A stretch of DNA of 64,000 bases, taken from positions 686,624 to 750,623 of the forward strand of contig CAVPHB010000006.1 in the NCBI GenBank assembly GCA_963704145.1. Direction: 5' to 3'. This DNA comes from an uncultured Chloroflexia bacterium. Its GTDB lineage: Bacteria > Chloroflexota > Limnocylindria > Limnocylindrales > CSP1-4. How positions within the stretch are numbered: position 1 is the stretch's first letter; each line of letters starts with the position of its first letter. Both the position numbers and the translations under genes were made by a program. The notes below the pieces were generated by a model that was not told where the DNA came from, ran no database searches, and saw nothing but the letters and a program-made list of their open reading frames with translations. Shown here in pieces: positions 13,017-55,687 of the stretch.

Positions 13017-13086
13017 CAGGGGTTGAGTCTAGAGGAGGACGGGGAGCCATACCGGAGCGCTGGCGCCGCCACCGGAGACACAGCTG

Positions 13087-13222
13087 GCGGCAGAAGTCGC
13101 CATGTGGGACCTGGTTGCGCGCGCCGAGCCGCACCATGTGCCAGGCGTGCGGGTTGAGCGACATGTGGCTCAAGATGGCGCGGGTCGGGCGACAGCAGGT
13201 CGCTATATCGGACATTTGGCGC
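13087..13222. repeat. Orphan copy of the 135-bp three-module palindromic element
   Basis: GTN-N9/10-GAC cores at 13096, 13147 and 13199; about 80% identical (manual alignment) to the reverse complement of 53420-53572. Confidence 0.85.
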
Positions 13223-13235
13223 GAAGAAGTAGAGC

Positions 13236-37240: not shown

Positions 37241-38584
37241 GTGAGTCAGCCGGTTCTGCCGCCCAACGGTGCGCCGACGCGCGAGGCGGTAACTGATCCG
37301 GTGCCCGACCGGGCGCAGCACGGCCCGCTCGACGTGAGCAATGGCGGCGAGGCCCATCCGAACGCCTCGCCTGATGCTCGCGATCGGCTGGTGCTGGACC
37401 GCATCCGCAATGCCACCTACGCCCTGTTGGCCTTGCTTGGGGCGACGGTGGCCATCTCCATCTGGCGCGCACCGGCCGATGCACTGGCGATCGCACAGCT
37501 CTTGGCCACTCTTGCGCTGGCCGGCCTTGTCGCCGCGCAGTTCGAGCTCGGCCGGCGTCTCGGCCGGCGGCGCGAGGCGCGCGACGCTGGCATCACGCGC
37601 ATGTTGCAGGGCATGTCGCGCTCTGTCTCGCCCGATGCGATCGTACAGACAATCGTCGACGAGTTGCGCGGCGCAGCTGACGCAGACCACATCCTCGTTG
37701 CCCGACTGCGGCCAGTCGACCGGGTCGTCGAGGCGACGCTCGTGTCGAGCCGCGCGCGCGTCCCGCCATCGCGCTCAACGCTGCCCGCCGGCGTCCTCGA
37801 CCCGGCCCGCCTGCCCGGCGCTCAGCGGAGCGGGCGCGGGCCATCCCTGCTCGGCCCACCGGCCGAGCAGCTCGTGGCCGACGATCTCGCGCGCCGGCTG
37901 GCCGAGTCGTACGCGTTGGCCAACACGCTGGCCATGCCGCTCGTGGCCGAAGATCGGATCCTGGGGGCGCTGATCCTCTCGCGCCGCGAGCCGCGCGACT
38001 GGACGACCGGCGATCGCCGGCTGCTGTCCTGGGCGGCGCAGGAGATGTCAGCCGCCCTGAGCCGCGCGTTCGCCTTCGAGGAGGTCGAGAACCAGGCCAA
38101 CATCGACGCGCTCACCGGTCTGCCCAACCGGCGCTACCTCGAAGAGCTGCTGGCAACCGTCGGCCCGCGCCGCCGCTCGGTCGACCGGCTGGGTGTGCTG
38201 ATGATCGACCTTGATAACTTCAAGCGGCTCAACGACCGCTACGGCCAGGCCGTCGGCGACCGCGTGCTGCGTGCGGTCGGCGAACGGATCTTGGGTGCGG
38301 TGCGCGCGGACGACACGCCGGCGCGCTACGGGGGCGAGGAGTTTGCGGTCGTTCTGCGCCGGGCCAGCCCGGCGCAGGCGATCGAAGTGGCCGAGCGCAT
38401 CCGCGCCCAGGTCGAGGCCATCGAGCCCGGCCAGCTCGGAATCACCGAGCGGATCACCGTCTCGGTCGGCGTTGCCGTGGCCGACATTCGAGCCGGCGAA
38501 GTGCCCATCCTGCTCGAGGCTGCCGACGACGCGCTGTACCGCGCCAAACGCGAGGGTCGCAACCGCGTCGTCCTCGCGTCGTAA
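37241..38584 (+). CDS. Membrane GAF-GGDEF diguanylate cyclase
   Basis: Two TM helices, GAF-like region, DALTGLPNRR, DLDNFK, RADD I-site, RYGGEEF. Confidence 0.92.
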   Translation: MSQPVLPPNGAPTREAVTDPVPDRAQHGPLDVSNGGEAHPNASPDARDRLVLDRIRNATYALLALLGATVAISIWRAPADALAIAQLLATLALAGLVAAQFELGRRLGRRREARDAGITRMLQGMSRSVSPDAIVQTIVDELRGAADADHILVARLRPVDRVVEATLVSSRARVPPSRSTLPAGVLDPARLPGAQRSGRGPSLLGPPAEQLVADDLARRLAESYALANTLAMPLVAEDRILGALILSRREPRDWTTGDRRLLSWAAQEMSAALSRAFAFEEVENQANIDALTGLPNRRYLEELLATVGPRRRSVDRLGVLMIDLDNFKRLNDRYGQAVGDRVLRAVGERILGAVRADDTPARYGGEEFAVVLRRASPAQAIEVAERIRAQVEAIEPGQLGITERITVSVGVAVADIRAGEVPILLEAADDALYRAKREGRNRVVLAS

Positions 38585-38585
38585 C

Positions 38586-38683
38586 GCACGCTGGCACGCT
38601 GGCACGCTGGCACGCTGGAGCCGCTTGGGCGCTGGAGCGCTGTCACGCTGGCACGCTGGAGCCGCTGGGGCGCTGGAGCGCTG
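38586..38683. repeat. Tandem 8-9-bp repeats (GCACGCTG / GCGCTGGA)
   Basis: gcacgctg x4 followed by degenerate units up to about 38683. Confidence 0.85.
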
Positions 38684-38716
38684 CGGTCGTCTGCCGCCCG
38701 GCGGCCGGGTCAGTTC

Positions 38717-38851
38717 GCGCCCGGTGTTCGGTACGCGGACCTCGTCGAGGTGTTTCGATGCCATCTCGTGCCAGGTGTGCCACGACGGGACAGGTGGCAC
38801 GGCCGGCGGCCGTCATCCGCGGACGAGGTTCGTATCCGGCACTGCTGACAC
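38717..38851. repeat. 135-bp three-module palindromic element downstream of the HTH-nuclease gene, overlapping its stop codon
   Basis: GTN-N9-NAC cores at 38726, 38777 and 38828; central module GTGCCA-GGT-GTG-N9-GAC-AGG-TGGCAC. Confidence 0.8.
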
Positions 38852-39510
38852 AAACCAGATCCCGCGCAGCGGAGCCGCGGGTTGCCGCAGCCACGCGCGC
38901 ACCTCGCGGCTGCGGGCCGGATAGGCGGCCGCCATCGTTGCCGGATGCGCGGCCACGATCCGTCGGATCGCGTTGTCACGCGGCACGATGAGCAGACGGC
39001 CGACGATGTTTGGCCACCAACCGAAGCGGGCGTGGGCCAGCTTGGGTGCAAGTCGCTCCTTGACGTCGAGCGTCCTGTTCAGCTCCTCGAGTGAGCCGAA
39101 CTCGCTCTTGACCTCGCATACCGCTATGGCGAGCCGGGCCCCGTGCGCGGCGAAGATGTCGATCGAGCCACGCTCGCCGAACTCGGCGAAGGACAGCTCC
39201 ACCGCCGTCTGCCATCCGCGTGCCCGGAACACTCGTGCGGCGCGTTCCACCAGTGCCGCGTGTCGCTCATCGAGCAATCGGTCCGCCGCCGCGCCATTCC
39301 ACCACGGCACGAGTCGGCCGCGCCCGCCCGCTGCCTCGAGGATCCGCCTGACGCGGCCGAGCTTGACGTCTGCGGCGCGGCCGGCCTCGATGCGAATCAC
39401 GTCGATGCGCGGCACGCCGGCCCAGACCGCGAGCTCGTTCTGTGTATGGCCGGTCTTCCTGCGGATGAGCCGTAGCAGGTGAGCAAGCGCTCGTCGTCGT
39501 TGGTCGCCAC
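38813..39510 (-). CDS. XRE-type HTH + PD-(D/E)XK restriction-endonuclease-like protein
   Basis: LRLIRRKTGHTQNELA...IRIEAG (HTH); LLDERHAALVE; GSIDIF...VCEVKS (D...ExK). Likely start GTG 39510 (MATNDDERL) with a 1-nt frame break near 39485. Confidence 0.8.
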
Positions 39511-39592
39511 GGGGAACAAGTCTGGGCCGGCCCGCTTGCCGCGGACCTACCCCGGCCTCCTCTGCCAATTGCGCTTGGACGCCCACTGCCTT

Positions 39593-39727
39593 GCTCCGAA
39601 TGTCCCGATGTCGTACTCCGTCCCAAATCCGACGGCCCAAGAAGTGCCAGGGGTGCGAGCGCGAGACATCTGGCGCAATCCGGAGCCGTCTGGCGCGGAT
39701 GGAGTCCCTATCCGGGACATCTGCCAC
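39593..39727. repeat. 135-bp three-module palindromic element upstream of the HTH-nuclease gene
   Basis: Cores at 39602, 39653 and 39704; central module GTGCCA-GGG-GTG-N9-GAC-ATC-TGGCGC. Confidence 0.8.
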
Positions 39728-39770
39728 AAGAACGAACAACGAACCGTGTGGGAGCTTGCGCCCGATTTGA

Positions 39771-39810
39771 CCGACCACGGCCAACCCACGGCCACCACGG
39801 CCGACCACCG
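39771..39810. repeat. Short tandem repeat (about 4 x CC(G/A)ACCACGG)
   Basis: ccgaccacgg ccaacccacgg ccaccacgg ccgaccaccg. Confidence 0.7.
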
Positions 39811-39818
39811 TCGCGACG

Positions 39819-41198
39819 TTGAGCGCCTCGGATAGTCTGCTGCTCGTGGACACCAGTGTGGCGATCATCGGGCTTGGCTATGTCGGGCTGCCACTTGGGC
39901 TTGCCTTCGTCGAGGCCGGGTGCCGGGTCGTCGGCTACGACGACAACGCCGCCCGCCTGGAGTTGTTGCGCGCCGGCCACTCACCGGTCGATGACGTTTC
40001 GGACGCCCGGCTGGCCGACGGGCTGGCGCGTGGCTTGCTGCTTCGCTCGCCGGCCGACGCTGGCTTGGCCGACGCTGGCTTGGCCGACGCTGATGCAATC
40101 TTCGTGTGTGTCTCGACGCCGATCAACGCCGCGCGCGAGCCCGACCTCGGCGCCGTCCTTGGTGCCGCCGCCACGATTGCCGCGACGCTGCGCGCCGGCC
40201 AGCTGGTAGTGCTCCAGTCGACGACCTGGCCGGGCACAACCGGCGGTCCGTTCCGGACCGAGCTCGAGCGCTCCGGGCTGGCGGCCGGGCGCGACTTCGC
40301 GCTCGCCTTTGCGCCCGAGCGGATCAGCCCGGGCGACGGCCAGCGGGCCAGCGAGTCGCTGCCCCGTCTGGTCGGCGGCTTGACGCCGGCTGACACCGAG
40401 CGCGCCGCCGCGCTCCTGCGCCGGCTGGGCGGCGAAGTCCACGAACTGTCGTCGGCCGACGCGGCCGAGATGGCCAAGCTGCTCGAGAACGTGTTCCGCA
40501 ACGTCAACATCGCCCTGGTCAACCAGCTCGCCCTGCTGTGCGAGCGGATGGGGCTGGACGTGTGGGAGGTGATCGACGGCGCCGCGACCAAGCCGTTCGG
40601 CTTCATGCCCTTCCGGCCCGGCCCGGGGGTGGGTGGGCACTGCATCCCGGTCGATCCCTACTACCTCGCCTGGCGGGCGCGCCAATTCGGGCTCAACGAC
40701 CCATTCGTCGAGCTGGCCGGTGACATCAACGCGTCGATGCCGGGCCACGTCGCCGATCTAGTCGGCGACGCACTCGACGATCGCGGCCGGTCGACCAGCG
40801 CTGCGCGGGTGGGCATCCTCGGGGTGGCCTTCAAGCCCAACATCCGTGATGCGCGCAACGCACCGGCCGCGCAGGTCATGGCTGAGCTCGCACGTCGCGG
40901 CGCGCACGTCCGTTATCACGATCCACACGTGCTCGGCTTCACGGACGCCGCCGGCAGCGAATACCGGTCCGTCGCCCTGGACGAGCTGCTGGGCGAGAGC
41001 GACCTGATCGTGGCGCTGGTCGGCCACGAGGCCATCGACTGGCAGCGCGTCTACGCGAAAGCGCCGCTGATCGTGGATACCGTCAACACCTGTCGCGGTC
41101 AGCCGGTCAGGGCGCGCCAGGTCCTTCGTCTCGGCGCCGGCTGGGCGCAAGAGACGCGTAGCGCGACCGCACGACCGAGACCGCCCAACGGAAGATGA
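39819..41198 (+). CDS. Nucleotide-sugar dehydrogenase (UDP-GlcNAc/ManNAc dehydrogenase family)
   Basis: IGLGYVGLP, STTWPGTT, PERISPG, AEMAKLLENVFRNVNIA, PGVGGHC, FKPNIRDARN. Confidence 0.92.
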   Translation: MSASDSLLLVDTSVAIIGLGYVGLPLGLAFVEAGCRVVGYDDNAARLELLRAGHSPVDDVSDARLADGLARGLLLRSPADAGLADAGLADADAIFVCVSTPINAAREPDLGAVLGAAATIAATLRAGQLVVLQSTTWPGTTGGPFRTELERSGLAAGRDFALAFAPERISPGDGQRASESLPRLVGGLTPADTERAAALLRRLGGEVHELSSADAAEMAKLLENVFRNVNIALVNQLALLCERMGLDVWEVIDGAATKPFGFMPFRPGPGVGGHCIPVDPYYLAWRARQFGLNDPFVELAGDINASMPGHVADLVGDALDDRGRSTSAARVGILGVAFKPNIRDARNAPAAQVMAELARRGAHVRYHDPHVLGFTDAAGSEYRSVALDELLGESDLIVALVGHEAIDWQRVYAKAPLIVDTVNTCRGQPVRARQVLRLGAGWAQETRSATARPRPPNGR

Positions 41199-51672: not shown

Positions 51673-53352
51673 GTGACCGACCTGATCGTCGAGAGCCCGG
51701 TCATTGATCTGGCCGACCGCTTCTGGCAGTGGTTCCTGGCTCGCCAACCGATGTACGCGACGGTGCTCGGCGACGAGCGTTACGACGATCGCCTGGCCGA
51801 CCCGTCGCCCGAAGGGCGGGCCGAGGAGGTCGCCGGACTGAAGGGCTTCCTGCACGACGCCCGACAGGTCGAGCGTCAGACCCTCGAGCAGGAGGATCTG
51901 ATCACGCTCGACATGCTCGAGGTGGTGGCGCGCATCTGGCTGCGCCAGCACGAGCATCACGTTCACCATTTCGAGGCGATCGACCAGATGTCGGGCCCGC
52001 ACGGCCTGGCCGGCGACCTGTCCCGCTTTCAGCGCGTTGACAGCGTCGAGCGGATCGACCGGCTCGTCCAGCGCCTCGAGGCGTTCCCCCATTTCCTGGC
52101 CGCCCATCGCGCCAACCTGCTCGAGGGCGTCGCCGCCGGCCGAACGGCAGCAGCACCGGTGGTCGCCCGGGTGATCGACCAGGCCCGCCGCGCGATCGAG
52201 ACGCCGATCGATCAATCGCCGTTGCTGGCCGCGCATCCCGAGCTCGATGACGCGTCACGCACCCGGATCCGGGCGGCGATCGAAGAGAACGTCATGCCCG
52301 CGTTGGTCGATCACCTGGCCGCCCTGCGAGGGCTACGCCCCCTATGCGCGCATCAGGGAAGGCGTGTGCGCGCTGCCCGACGGCAACGAGCTGTACAAGA
52401 CGATGATCCTTGCCTCGACGACGCTGGAGGAGACGCCCGAGTCAATTCACCAGTACGGCCTCGAGCAGCTCGAGCTGATCCGCGAGGAGACCGGAGGGAT
52501 CGCCACTGAGCTCGGCTTCGCACGACGTGCCCGAGATGCGCCGCGCGCTGGCCTCCGACGCCTCGAACTACGCCACCAGCGGCAGCCGAGATCGTCGAGC
52601 GCGCGCGGCGTCAGATAGAGAAAGCCAACGCCGCCGCACCGCGCTGGTTCGGCCGCCTGCCGGTGGCCGGCTGCGAGGTGCGCCCGGTCGAGCCGTTCCA
52701 GGAGGCCGAGGCGCCGCCCGCCTTCTACTTCCCGCCCGCCCCCGACGGATCGCGCGGTGGGATCTACTTCGTCAACACCTACCAGCCCGAGAGTCGGCCG
52801 CTGTATCGCCTGGCGACTACGACCTACCACGAGGCAACACCGGGCCATCACTTTCAGATCGCGCTCGAGAGCGAGATGACGGACCAGCCCGACTTCCGCC
52901 GCTTCGGCGCCCGTCTGACGGGCGCCGCCTATCCCGAGGGCTGGGGCCTGTACAGCGAGCGGCTGGCCGACGAGATGGGCCTCTTCGAGAGCGCCTGGGA
53001 GCGGCTGGGCATGCTCGACGCGCAGGCCTGGCGCGCGGCGCGGCTGGTGGTCGACACCGGCATCCACGCCTTCGAATGGAGCCGGGCGCAGTCGGTCGAG
53101 CTGCTCACGACGGTCGGCCTGTCCCGGCTCGAGGCGGAGACCGAGACCGATCGCTACATCGCCTGGCCGGGCCAGGCCCTGGCCTACATGACCGGCATGC
53201 GCGAGATCGTCGCCCTGCGCCGCCAGCTCGAGCAGCGCGACGGCGATCGGTTCGACCTGGTCGGGTTCCACGATGAACTGCTCGGCCACGGCACGCTGCC
53301 GCTGGCCACCATGCGCCGCGTGCTGCCCGGCTGGGTCAAGCCGCGCGCCTAG
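51673..53352 (+). CDS. DUF885 family protein (putative metallopeptidase-like), frameshifted
   Basis: YHEATPGHHFQ, YPEGWGLYSE, WRAARLVVDTGIH, RYIAWPGQALAY. Confidence 0.9.
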
Positions 53353-53422
53353 CTCTGCTGCCGGTCGCGCGGGTCCGTTCAGCGCCCGGTTGTCTTCGCG
53401 CCAAGGGTCCGCCACGCCTTTC

Positions 53423-53557
53423 GCGCCAAGTGTGCGACATAGCAACCTGATGGCGCCCGACCCGCGCCATGTTGCGCCACACGTCCCTCACCCGCACTCT
53501 TGGCACAAACTGAAGCTCGGCGCGCGCCATCAGGTCCCAAATGGCGACTTCTGACGC
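53423..53557. repeat. Orphan copy of the 135-bp three-module palindromic element
   Basis: Cores at 53432, 53483 and 53534 (exact 51-bp steps). Confidence 0.85.
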
Positions 53558-53704
53558 AGCCTGTGTCTTCGGCGGCCGCACCGGGGCGGGTCATTCAGCG
53601 CCCGGTCGTGGGACTGAACGTACCGCGCCGTGTGACTGATGGCCCATGCGTGCCGGCCGGTGCTGCTTACCATCGAACTCACTGCACGTAAAGAGGAGAC
53701 CGCG

Positions 53705-55687
53705 GTGACTGACGCTACCCTGCCCGGTTCGATGAGCCAGCCCGAGATCGACGACCTGATGTCGGAGCGGCACCGCTTCCCGCCGGATCCGCGCTTCGTG
53801 GCCCAGGCCAACGCCGGTTCGGAGCTGTACGAGGAAGCAGAGCGCGACTACGTCGCGTTCTGGGAGCGTCTGGCCCGCGAGCGCCTGAGCTGGGAAACGC
53901 CGTTCGAGACCACTCTCGAATGGGAGCTGCCGTTTGCCAAGTGGTTCGTCGGGGGGCGGCTCAACGTGAGTTACAACTGCGTCGATCGGCACGTCGAGCG
54001 CGGCTTGGGCGACAAGGTCGCCTACCACTGGATCGGTGAGCCGGGTGACGAGCGGAAGCTGACCTACGCTGATCTGCAGCAAGAGGTGGCCAAGGCGGCT
54101 AACGCGCTGCTCGAGCTCGGCGTGAAGACCGGCGACCGGGTTGCGATCTACATGCCGATGATTCCCGAGCTACCCATCGCGATGCTCGCCTGCGCGCGCA
54201 TCGGCGCGCCGCACACGGTCGTGTTCGGCGGCTTCAGCGCCGAGGCCCTGGCCGACCGGATCAATGACGCGCAGGCCAAGCTGCTGATCACCGCCGACGG
54301 CGGCTGGCGGCGGGGCAAGCCGGCCAACCTCAAGACCGCCGCAGACGAAGCCGTGGCGCAGACCACCACGGTCGAGCACGTGCTGGTCGTGCGCCGCGTG
54401 GGCGATGCCGGCGTGGTGCCCATGCAGCCCAGTCGCGACGTGTGGTGGCACGACATCGTCGACCGCCAGAGCGCCGACTGCCCGCCCGTGCCGGTCGATT
54501 CAGAGCACCTGCTCTACGTGCTGTACACGTCGGGCACGACGGCCAAGCCCAAGGGCATCATCCACACCAGCGCCGGCTACCTGCTCGGGGCGAGCGTCAC
54601 CCACGAGATGGTGTTCGACGTCAAGCCAGACGATGTCTACTGGTGCGCCGCCGACATCGGCTGGGTGACCGGGCACTCGTACATCGTGTACGGGCCGCTG
54701 GCCAACGGCGCTACGAGCGTGATCTACGAGGGCACGCCCGATACGCCCGCCTGGGATCGCTGGTGGCAGATCGTCGAGGACCTCAAGGTCACCATCATGT
54801 ACACGGCGCCGACTGCTATCCGCGCGTTCATGAAGCAGGGTGCCGAGCTCCCGGCCAAGCACGATCTGTCCAGCCTGCGCCTGCTCGGCAGCGTCGGCGA
54901 GCCGATCAACCCGGAGGCGTGGCTGTGGTACCACCACAACATCGGCGGCGGGCAGGCGCCGATCGTCGACACGTGGTGGCAGACCGAGACGGGCATGATC
55001 ATGATCACGCCGTTGCCCGGCGTCACGACCACCAAGCCGGGCAGCGCCACGTTCCCCTTCCCGGGCATCGGCGCCGACGTCGTCGATGACGCGGGCAACC
55101 CTGTCCCGCTGGGCGGTGCTGGCTACCTGGTGCTCACTCGGCCGTGGCCGGGGATGCTGCGTGGCATCTACGGCGATCCGGAGCGCTACAGGGACACCTA
55201 TTGGAGCCGTTTCCCGGGCAAGTACTTCGCCGGCGACGGCGCTCGGCGCGACGAGGACGGCTACCTCTGGCTGCTCGGCCGTGTCGACGACGTGATGAAC
55301 GTGTCGGGCCACCGCATCTCGACGATCGAGGTCGAGTCGGCGCTGGTCAGCCATCCGTCGGTCGCCGAGGCGGCCGTGGTCGGCCGGCACGACCCGGTCA
55401 GCGGGCAGGCGATCTTTGCCTTCGTCAGCCTGCGCACGGGCTTCCAGGCGTCGGACGAGCTGGGCAAGGAGCTGCGTGAGCACGTCGCTCGGGTCATCGG
55501 GGCAATCGCCAAGCCGAAGTACCTGCTCTTCACGGCCGACCTGCCCAAGACCCGCTCGGGCAAGATCATGCGCCGCCTGCTGCGCGACATCGGCGAGGGG
55601 CGCGCCCTGGGCGACACGACGACGCTGGCCGACACGGCCGTGATCGAGACGATCCGCGAGCGTTCCGGGGCAGCGACCGAGGAGTAA
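53705..55687 (+). CDS. acs: Acetate--CoA ligase
   Basis: [50 protein letters not shown]. Confidence 0.96.

Follow-up and report, generated by a model that had tools for sequence, protein, structure and literature searches.

Bacterial genomes commonly contain dispersed palindromic repeats. In the surveyed literature, at the level of abstracts, RAYT/REPIN is the only case in which such repeats are tied to an acting gene; no PD-(D/E)XK or XRE gene tied to dispersed repeats was met there, nor anything on repeats in Limnocylindria. The locus considered here belongs to a stretch of 64,000 nucleotides (the window) of G000, an uncultured soil Chloroflexota metagenome-assembled genome (MAG) with an assembly of 2.6 Mb that is 51% complete. 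It comprises a gene for a protein with an XRE helix-turn-helix (HTH) and a predicted PD-(D/E)XK-like C-terminal half, and, on each side of it, one copy of a ~150-bp element. Judged from sequence comparison, it might be a repeat-associated nuclease system analogous to RAYT/REPIN and built on a different fold, a reading that comes close to even likelihood without reaching it.

As published accounts describe in part, and as otherwise generally understood, a RAYT/REPIN system includes a low-copy nuclease-type gene flanked by palindromic repeats dispersed in the same genome, and gene and repeats tend to co-occur and persist vertically (PMC2817692, PMC3116915, PMC5581495, 10.1101/2022.05.22.493013). 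On each side, the window gene likewise has a member of a repeat family that is dispersed in its genome, and the analogy with RAYT drawn by a first-pass annotation of this DNA gains support because the elements belong to such a family. By contrast, the window protein, of XRE-HTH and PD-(D/E)XK-like type, is no HUH/Y1 transposase; three dyads arrayed over ~150 bp make up the element, instead of a REP hairpin or inverted pair of 20-40 bp, and it occurs in 1-14 copies instead of hundreds, with the gene's own 3' end inside it. Scans of the protein with Pfam, NCBIfam, PHROGs and PADLOC returned HTH families only; identity with RAYT was rejected because no HUH/Y1 domain was found in them.

Intergenic repeats resembling miniature inverted-repeat transposable elements (MITEs) are exemplified by ERIC and Correia. 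The window element is like them in its length of ~150 bp, dyad symmetry, terminal inverted repeats, intergenic position, polymorphism among relatives and young burst of copies, and unlike them in having no target-site duplication in 14 copies, no DDE transposase partner, three modules with a conserved 51-bp spacing and a link to one gene family. The res sites of the Tn3 family have three subsites, and the window element likewise gathers three putative protein-binding dyads in one site of ~130-150 bp, whereas no recombinase domain was found in the four flanking genes scanned and sites of the window family are dispersed as solo copies, outside any transposon. HigA/HipB antitoxins and the controller (C) proteins of restriction-modification (R-M) systems have a similar HTH, and here too palindromic sites stand beside the protein's own gene. 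Unlike in these proteins, the window HTH is fused to a nuclease-like half of ~165 aa, and the conserved site is found at the 3' end of the gene and dispersed elsewhere; unlike in type II toxin-antitoxin systems, no toxin gene is adjacent (four flanking genes scanned).

An HTH gene between two copies of one element

Copies of the element were delimited with two profile models. R1 was trained on copies of the window genome only, whereas R2 is an iterated model with a multi-genome training set that includes nine gene-linked sites. The closest homologues of the window gene are designated clade A, with a cut of at least 53% identity in genome tallies. The central features are the following, contig positions being given for the two elements and HMM standing for hidden Markov model.

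38813..39586, minus strand: XRE-HTH gene of clade A with a PD-(D/E)XK-like C-terminal half (predicted), 257 aa, stop TGA at 38813-38815
38707..38857, minus strand: 3' element copy of ~150 bp with three modules (C6:725330-725480), matched by R1 and R2, included in alignments A3 and A4, at the same position in homologues
38768..38853, minus strand: core of the 3' copy, in direct repeat over 86 nt with 39644-39729, containing the 33-bp central palindrome 38768-38800
39585..39731, minus strand: upstream element copy (C6:726208-726354), matched by R1, R2 and an HMM of seven solo copies (E 0.05 genome-wide), also on a related-strain contig
39644..39729, minus strand: core of the upstream copy, containing the 33-bp central palindrome 39644-39676, with dyad and 51-bp repeats

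Elements on both sides of the gene had been reported in the first-pass annotation, and both are real, within the limits now given. The two cores align ungapped over 86 nt by local alignment, at an offset of 876, with 59/86 identical positions. This repeat scores 37, whereas 300 shuffles average 19.0 (sd 2.5) and the best of 3000 random genome segments attains 36. It begins 40 nt before the stop and continues through the 33-bp palindrome, and no similarity extends past either end. Over their whole length, the two gene-linked copies are 56% identical to one another. A blastn search with both elements against the genome found no further copy, nor one with the other, their relation being visible only by local alignment and profiles.

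The annotation described three modules 51 bp apart, a distance of about five helical turns. The 33-nt pattern given there fits the central modules exactly, at 38768 and 39644, with one more exact match at 53474. The pattern far exceeds the shuffled expectation, with no match in 100 shuffles and four sites in the 2.6-Mb assembly versus none for the reversed-pattern control. The outer modules fail the full pattern, without any match at up to three mismatches (4-7 mismatches over the 16 specified positions by hand count), and are real half-site modules when aligned with other family copies.

The left module of the 3' copy codes for the last 13 codons and the stop, so that its translation is the protein tail, with TCAGATGGACC read as S-D-G-P. 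The overlap of the downstream element with the end of the gene, already remarked upon in the annotation, is confirmed and conserved in homologues. The palindrome follows 12 nt after the stop, between convergent genes, and no U-tract comes after it. The upstream copy has the same orientation as the 3' copy and ends at the start codon, in a divergent intergenic region shared with a dehydrogenase gene; upstream of the gene, the family HMM detects no gene remnant. Between the stop of the neighbouring GGDEF gene and the 3' element, a tandem array occupies 38586-38685, with 8-bp units (CGCTGGCA) within a 41-bp period, rich in TGGCAC.

The open frame spans 38813-39868 on the minus strand. A gene start had been placed at 39510, wrongly, the GTG at this position being out of frame. 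In-frame starts upstream of the HTH are GTG 39586 and, alternatively, TTG 39568. The former is the likely start of the window gene; a GGAG lies 7 nt upstream of it (39597-39594), and the public gene call on the contig also gives a 257-aa protein. The XRE-HTH assignment stands, with a match of Pfam HTH_31 (PF13560) to residues 33-91 at 29.8 bits for a cut-off of 27, and matches in 82/84 homologues (scan threshold E<=5). The profiles closest to this HTH are those of HigA/HipB antitoxins and of controller proteins from R-M systems (HigA2, E 3.9e-6; C.BclI, E 1.5e-4).

The C-terminal part, of ~165 residues, is weakly predicted to contain a YraN-like PD-(D/E)XK nuclease core. The D...EVK motif noted earlier is indeed intact: neither the alignment of 15 homologues nor that of 84 shows any change at E130, E158 or K160, and D143 is invariant in the former and at least 90% conserved in the latter. 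Family alignments display the conserved motifs 'GERGSID', 'EVK' and 'GSLEExNR'. When the family was compared by hhalign with 14 YraN/UPF0102 domains from genomes of the same class, GERGSID was paired with GE-ID and CEVK with VEVK (probability 75.8%, E 2.3e-5, 48 columns), and Pfam UPF0102/YraN (PF02021) matched below cut-off in 2/84 members. YraN is generally placed in the PD-(D/E)XK superfamily. Unlike the window family, in which ~90 conserved residues continue beyond the core, YraN has ~120 aa and no HTH. In the window assembly (51% complete), no YraN of the genome itself was detected. Matches of the protein in the ESM Atlas are Chloroflexota clusters without names only.

A dispersed repeat family and its link to the gene family

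In the window genome, R1 and R2 together delimit 14 sites on both strands, two flanking the gene and 12 solo, and two of the solo copies lie in the window itself.

53419..53565, plus strand: solo copy of the young subfamily, in a ~350-nt insert between peptidase-like and acetyl-CoA synthetase genes
13077..13228, minus strand: second solo copy in the window (C6:699700-699851)

The pattern match at 53474 is part of a ~180-bp repeat of which the assembly contains seven copies. With an HMM built from the two gene-linked copies of the window, C4:14415 (E 0.009), C7:66407 (E 0.05) and C6:740052 (E 1.6) are weakly detected, and, conversely, the HMM of seven solo copies finds C4:490014 (E 3e-7) as well as the upstream copy of the window. 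Twelve aligned copies have a common plan, in which the left module consists of GYGYCA-NNTG and then a small GTC..GAC palindrome, a central 33-bp palindrome comes 51 bp later and a mirror-image right module ~51 bp further. At the two ends, the half-sites form an inverted repeat (helix 11-16/173-178, with 76% of cells paired). Both the 51-bp spacing and the dyad symmetry of the element as a whole, which the annotation called rough, characterise the entire family.

Seven solo copies are 75-89% identical, spacers included, with one pair at 99%. In this young subfamily, the left flanks, including G000:C6:588048-588115 (L001 1380-1450), carry 25-bp tandem units (CGCCACGTCTTTCGCGCCAAATGTC), and on the right side three copies carry a GACACCGA-TCGCC-GTCGGTGTC hairpin; with these extra parts, the amplified unit therefore measures ~250-280 bp. 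The solo copies at C6:59702-59989 and C6:258457-258744 are the 99% identical ones and their flanks are nearly identical too, so that a recent duplication of the whole segment seems likelier than movement of the element alone.

The gene belongs to a family of more than 500 relatives, expanded in Limnocylindria, with 57-70% identity among the matches listed; most have ~231-235 aa and start with 'MxxDDERLG', and those that are named come from Limnocylindria/Chloroflexota MAGs. In species-representative genomes, 511 stretches encode a relative. Within the genus of the window, the family is matched in 21/24 other genomes, with up to nine matches per genome and some internal stops, whereas no family gene was matched in the 16 genomes of a sister family with small genomes. 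The window genome itself has one paralogue of 41% identity on contig C1, for which no dispersed repeat of its own was detected in that genome, and two weak paralogues.

Gene and element families are linked beyond chance, as can be judged from several searches. R1 matches G023:C49:8075-8203, G024:C127:7985-8129 and G047:C205:2131-2270, each of which overlaps the 3' end of a close homologue. The HMM of alignment A3 was searched against 95 gene-family loci (429,536 nt). Outside the window locus, its significant matches fall in L015, L011 and L046, each beginning 34-40 nt before the stop, and a match at L054 lies 145 nt after the assigned stop. Iteration of the search led to 16 sites in 12 loci, all with at least 55% identity to the window protein. 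The claim that homologues are flanked by triads holds for the presence of an element at 12/20 family loci with at least 53% identity, two-sided bracketing being found in a minority. Elsewhere in the ~430 kb of family-locus flanks, nothing was detected but second copies upstream of the gene.

The position at the 3' end is conserved, and every close homologue with an element has one copy built in there. Nine of the ten 3'-end copies begin 31-46 nt before the stop, the other being a partial match at +37 in the pseudogene of L019, and in L014 and L054 the distance from a protein anchor equals that of the other 3'-end copies. L005, L014 and L016 carry second copies on the upstream side of the gene; those of L014 and L016, besides the window's own, lie at 340-400 nt. 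In L053, a 60% homologue from another MAG, the segment from -42 to +41 around the stop is repeated at -215 to -133, with its own version of the element. When flank-to-flank similarity was calculated for 92 loci, z exceeded 6 in four of them (L053, L098, L005 and L014) for a median of 0.43. The relaxed palindrome GYGYCA-N19-24-TGRCRC occurs six times in 7,789 nt directly after stops versus six times in 313,701 nt of background flanks; all six post-stop occurrences belong to homologues with at least 57% identity, and four, including the window's, are at equal offset from the stop.

In a census of the genus with R2 (threshold E<=1e-4), 61 distinct sites were found in 21/31 other genomes. When the R2 rows were compared by the authors with gene positions, 14/61 of these sites outside G000 proved to coincide with or adjoin a clade-A gene or pseudogene. 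Of these 14, nine match by construction because they are in the R2 training alignment; the other five are two in G047, two bracketing a pseudogene in G015 and one by a pseudogene in G002. Genes bracketed by two copies are known from G000, G005, G015 and G021, and also from L053, whereas most close homologues have the 3' copy only (G001, G006, G011, G023, G024 and G047). Two flanking copies together with solo copies, as in the window genome, also occur in G005 and G021. Protein-level data cover 24 genomes. In these, solo copies are present in 9/11 genomes with a clade-A gene, the exceptions (G002 and G015) having pseudogenes only; of the 13 genomes without such a gene, six have solo copies, strong ones in G004, G017 and G020 (75-85% complete), and seven have none. 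Solo copies are thus mostly, and not solely, found in genomes with a clade-A gene. When 121 genomes from 49 genera of the family were sampled, nine had elements (E<=0.001), with at least four matches in G000, G005, G011, G015 and G145, and genes with at least 55% identity were present only in G000, G005 and G011. Two of the genomes used are unpublished, G003 (loci L024 and L126 and single tally rows) and G127 (one row), and no conclusion rests on either.

A distant clade displays a motif of its own, GACAAATGWCRGAAGT, in two copies 51 bp apart downstream of a G015 pseudogene and in one copy downstream of a G013 gene. Four further sites in G015 and six in G013 bring the totals to 6 and 7, versus none in controls.

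Other repeats lie upstream of family genes. Direct repeats GATAAG(C/T)GGCC with an 11-bp period are found 40-100 nt upstream of most homologues (loci L009-L037 and L038-L117), in arrays of up to six units, and the window gene is devoid of them. CGATAAG is present in 30/95 upstream regions, 0/91 downstream regions and two background flanks. The arrangement GATAAG-N5-GATAAG (at most one mismatch) occurs 6-23 times per genome in G002, G005, G013, G015 and G021 versus 0-2 times in controls, many sites not adjoining family genes. These repeats are possibly a lineage-specific promoter or regulator site. Distant paralogues are found in recurrent settings. By eye, loci L017, L018, L022, L034 and L036 have a common upstream coding sequence, the end of a pseudouridine-5'-phosphate glycosidase-like gene, and L020, L023 and L035 stand head to head with a short-chain dehydrogenase-like gene. 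Since their neighbours are fixed across genomes, these distant clades appear to be stably inherited.

Symmetry, recognition helix and turnover of the copies

Covariation was evaluated on a MAFFT alignment of 19 copies from several genomes, with a structure defined by the authors (outer arms, a small palindrome on each side and the central palindrome). Paired cells amount to 79.6%, versus 67.0% in column shuffles, of which 0/500 reach the observed value, and 24-36% in slid controls; in 18/24 pairs, both partners changed. The principal switches, from UA to GC at 21/33, 83/96 and 156/168, divide two element subtypes and may therefore represent few events. The dyad symmetry of a protein-binding site accounts for this covariation as well as hairpins do. 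A reading of the element as RNA was disfavoured, RNAalifold giving a weak central hairpin only (-4.5 kcal/mol) and Rfam 15 no match at gathering score in the whole 64-kb window.

The annotation proposed a test of whether module sequence varies with the HTH recognition helix. At the start of this helix, seven loci with 'TGGAC'-type elements have PLxD[VIL]K, and three with 'TGTC'-type elements, including the window, have PRxD[VI][IM]. The element subtype therefore seems to track the recognition helix, a suggestive agreement confounded by descent that may amount to a single phylogenetic split.

Turnover of solo copies can be followed at a few sites. The genes flanking the copy at 53419-53565 overlap (ATGA) in G001 and are at most 35 nt apart in G018 and G020. 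Around this peptidase-like/acetyl-CoA synthetase gap (52700-54300), comparison of the sites in 30 genomes of the genus gives anything from an overlap to ~1250 nt, and the gap looks like an insertion hot spot. The C5 solo copy of G005 has 482 unrelated nt at the matching site of G021. Another solo copy of G005 (C3:12076) has an orthologue in G021, whereas at the equivalent site of G015 only the right flank matches, without an element.

The neighbours of the window gene are a GAF-GGDEF gene (37241-38584) and a UDP-glucose/GDP-mannose dehydrogenase gene (UGDH; 39819-41198), followed by a GDP-mannose 4,6-dehydratase and a group-1 glycosyltransferase. With integron attC sites also considered, no recombinase, integrase, methyltransferase, restriction-enzyme or toxin domain was detected in the four flanking genes scanned. 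The first-pass annotation saw a cassette interrupting a glycan locus. The sugar locus is real and the GGDEF and dehydrogenase genes do belong to it, but an interruption is not supported, these two genes lying apart in relatives. Their orthologues are ~7.5-8.6 kb apart in G002, G007, G016, G019 and G045, in the order dehydrogenase then GGDEF, and 2.2 kb apart in G018, with two ORFs between them, sulfotransferase-like and glycosyltransferase-like by eye. Because the two genes are not adjacent in relatives, the empty or single-element allele, for which a check had been suggested, cannot be defined, and the window locus is a synteny breakpoint. The gene has a GC content at third codon positions (GC3) of 0.79, versus 0.86-0.91 in three nearby genes. 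Among the sequencing runs listed as holding this DNA, none is an RNA run; three soil metagenome runs from one study hold small shares, as contigs from relatives that are 90-95% alike.

Weighing the explanations

According to the reading that we favour, the gene product would be a site-specific DNA-binding protein in which an XRE HTH is fused to a YraN-like PD-(D/E)XK core, with the ~150-bp dyad array of three modules 51 bp apart as its cognate cis element. Each module would combine a GYGYCA-NNTG half-site with a short GAC/GTC-type palindrome. Multimers of the protein could occupy the three dyads, in such a way that the HTH would contact the half-sites and the nuclease core would be placed above the small palindromes, and might nick or cut there, an activity that would drive copying, excision or recombination of the element. 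We infer, from sequence, that the protein would bind the element and cleave it, and that cleavage would mobilise it. A broader version is more tentative and can be called possible rather than probable. In it, the clades into which the XRE-HTH/PD-(D/E)XK family has diversified within Limnocylindria would each recognise and propagate their own ~150-bp three-dyad element, one copy of which is built into the 3' end of the gene, as a RAYT/REPIN-like replicator arisen independently on a restriction-endonuclease-type fold.

Several observations weigh against a nuclease that spreads its own repeats. Gene-linked and solo copies resemble each other weakly (44-57% identity), and the solo-only HMM does not detect the 3' copy of the window. 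No consistent target-site duplication was found in the 14 copies, with a 13-nt flank repeat at one of them, and the number of sites is low, 1-14 per genome. Elements without a detected clade-A gene occur in G004 (four sites), G020 (two) and G017 (one), all 75-85% complete, and in G145, where ~11 sites were counted and no gene with at least 55% identity was found (84% complete, 480 contigs). Solo copies can be stably inherited, as one is orthologous between G005 and G021 (element 75% and flank 83% identical). In these two genomes, likeness among the copies, linked or solo, is confined to the modules (such as GCGCCAwTTGGAC-n5-GTCC) and overall identity is 43-61%; selection on binding sites would explain this as readily as mobility. 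The genomes compared are related MAGs, so that counts are not independent trials, and R2 is partly circular for gene-linked matches. As regards the protein, the hhalign resemblance to YraN is weak, and the C-terminal half has no PDB (by sequence) or Pfam match above threshold, the PDB matches there being due to chance. The window protein lacks the usual family start MxxDDER, with three extra residues there, and related-strain contigs (two runs of one study) have 131 other letters in place of 89 nt of the window (39488-39576), between sides that are ~90-97% matching. Since a related strain differs in this way, the 5' end of the window copy is, on this comparison, atypical, and its unusual N-terminus may be the product of a local rearrangement.

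Some of these points would be expected of a regulator with operator arrays, i.e., a transcription or chromosome-architecture factor using its nuclease-like domain for multimerisation or sensing, with arrays kept by the host and spread by ordinary duplication. The HTH is indeed closest to HigA/HipB antitoxins and R-M controllers, which are palindrome-binding repressors, and the upstream copy lies in a divergent promoter region; low copy numbers, free spacers around conserved modules in G005/G021 and a solo copy kept at an orthologous site in two species point the same way. Such a factor is nevertheless rather unlikely, as it leaves aside the E, D and ExK residues invariant or nearly so in 84 homologues, a burst of copies 75-89% identical with their spacers included, a copy inserted between genes that overlap in a relative, and presence or absence that varies among close genomes. 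Moreover, the conserved copy is at the 3' end and not at the promoter, and the promoters of homologues carry another motif, the GATAAG repeats. The direct orientation of the flanking copies, which include the coding tail of the gene, brings to mind instead an autonomous cassette, element-gene-element, that moves or recombines as a whole, the solo copies being remnants of recombination between direct copies, as for solo long terminal repeats. In its favour, bracketed genes recur in G000, G005, G015, G021 and L053, and clade-A genes have several upstream contexts within the genus, common only to L009/L015, L010/L013 and L014/L016. The window's UGDH neighbour is found at no other family locus, the backbone genes tested are present across the genus, the locus is a synteny breakpoint and the GC3 of the gene is below that of its neighbours. 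A cassette of this kind is improbable all the same: most close homologues have the 3' copy only, the flanking copies are old and have diverged (in the window, to 56% identity from end to end), there are only one or two gene copies per genome and no recombinase is encoded adjoining the gene. Among the metagenome contigs of the three runs, which are short and come from relatives, none spans the locus and none joins two copies.

The 3' end of the gene could also have undergone partial tandem duplication and left the upstream copy as a relic, with palindromes acting as terminator or mRNA-stability hairpins or as a structured 3' untranslated RNA, and with a superficial likeness to other repeats. 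The 40 nt of coding tail in the repeat, the offset of 876 that preserves the reading frame, the palindrome 12 nt past the stop between convergent genes and the compensatory changes, which fit hairpins, are all compatible with such a relic. This origin is nonetheless very improbable in view of L053, which repeats a bounded unit with the same edges, and of family models that match on both strands, with the three-module 51-bp architecture common to 12 solo copies. The weak central hairpin found by RNAalifold, the lack of an Rfam match and of a U-tract after the palindrome, and the absence of any gene remnant detected upstream by the family HMM argue against it as well.

If the repeat-associated nuclease reading is true, this family would provide a second, unrelated fold tied to its own repeats, and partnerships of this kind would evolve repeatedly. 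One 257-aa protein and one 150-bp site form a tractable experimental pair, possibly with a new sequence-specific nuclease or DNA-binding module that has a long composite target. Because the window locus is a synteny breakpoint, the repeats are flagged as likely sites of genome rearrangement. The system would also account for unannotated intergenic repeats in an uncultured soil lineage.

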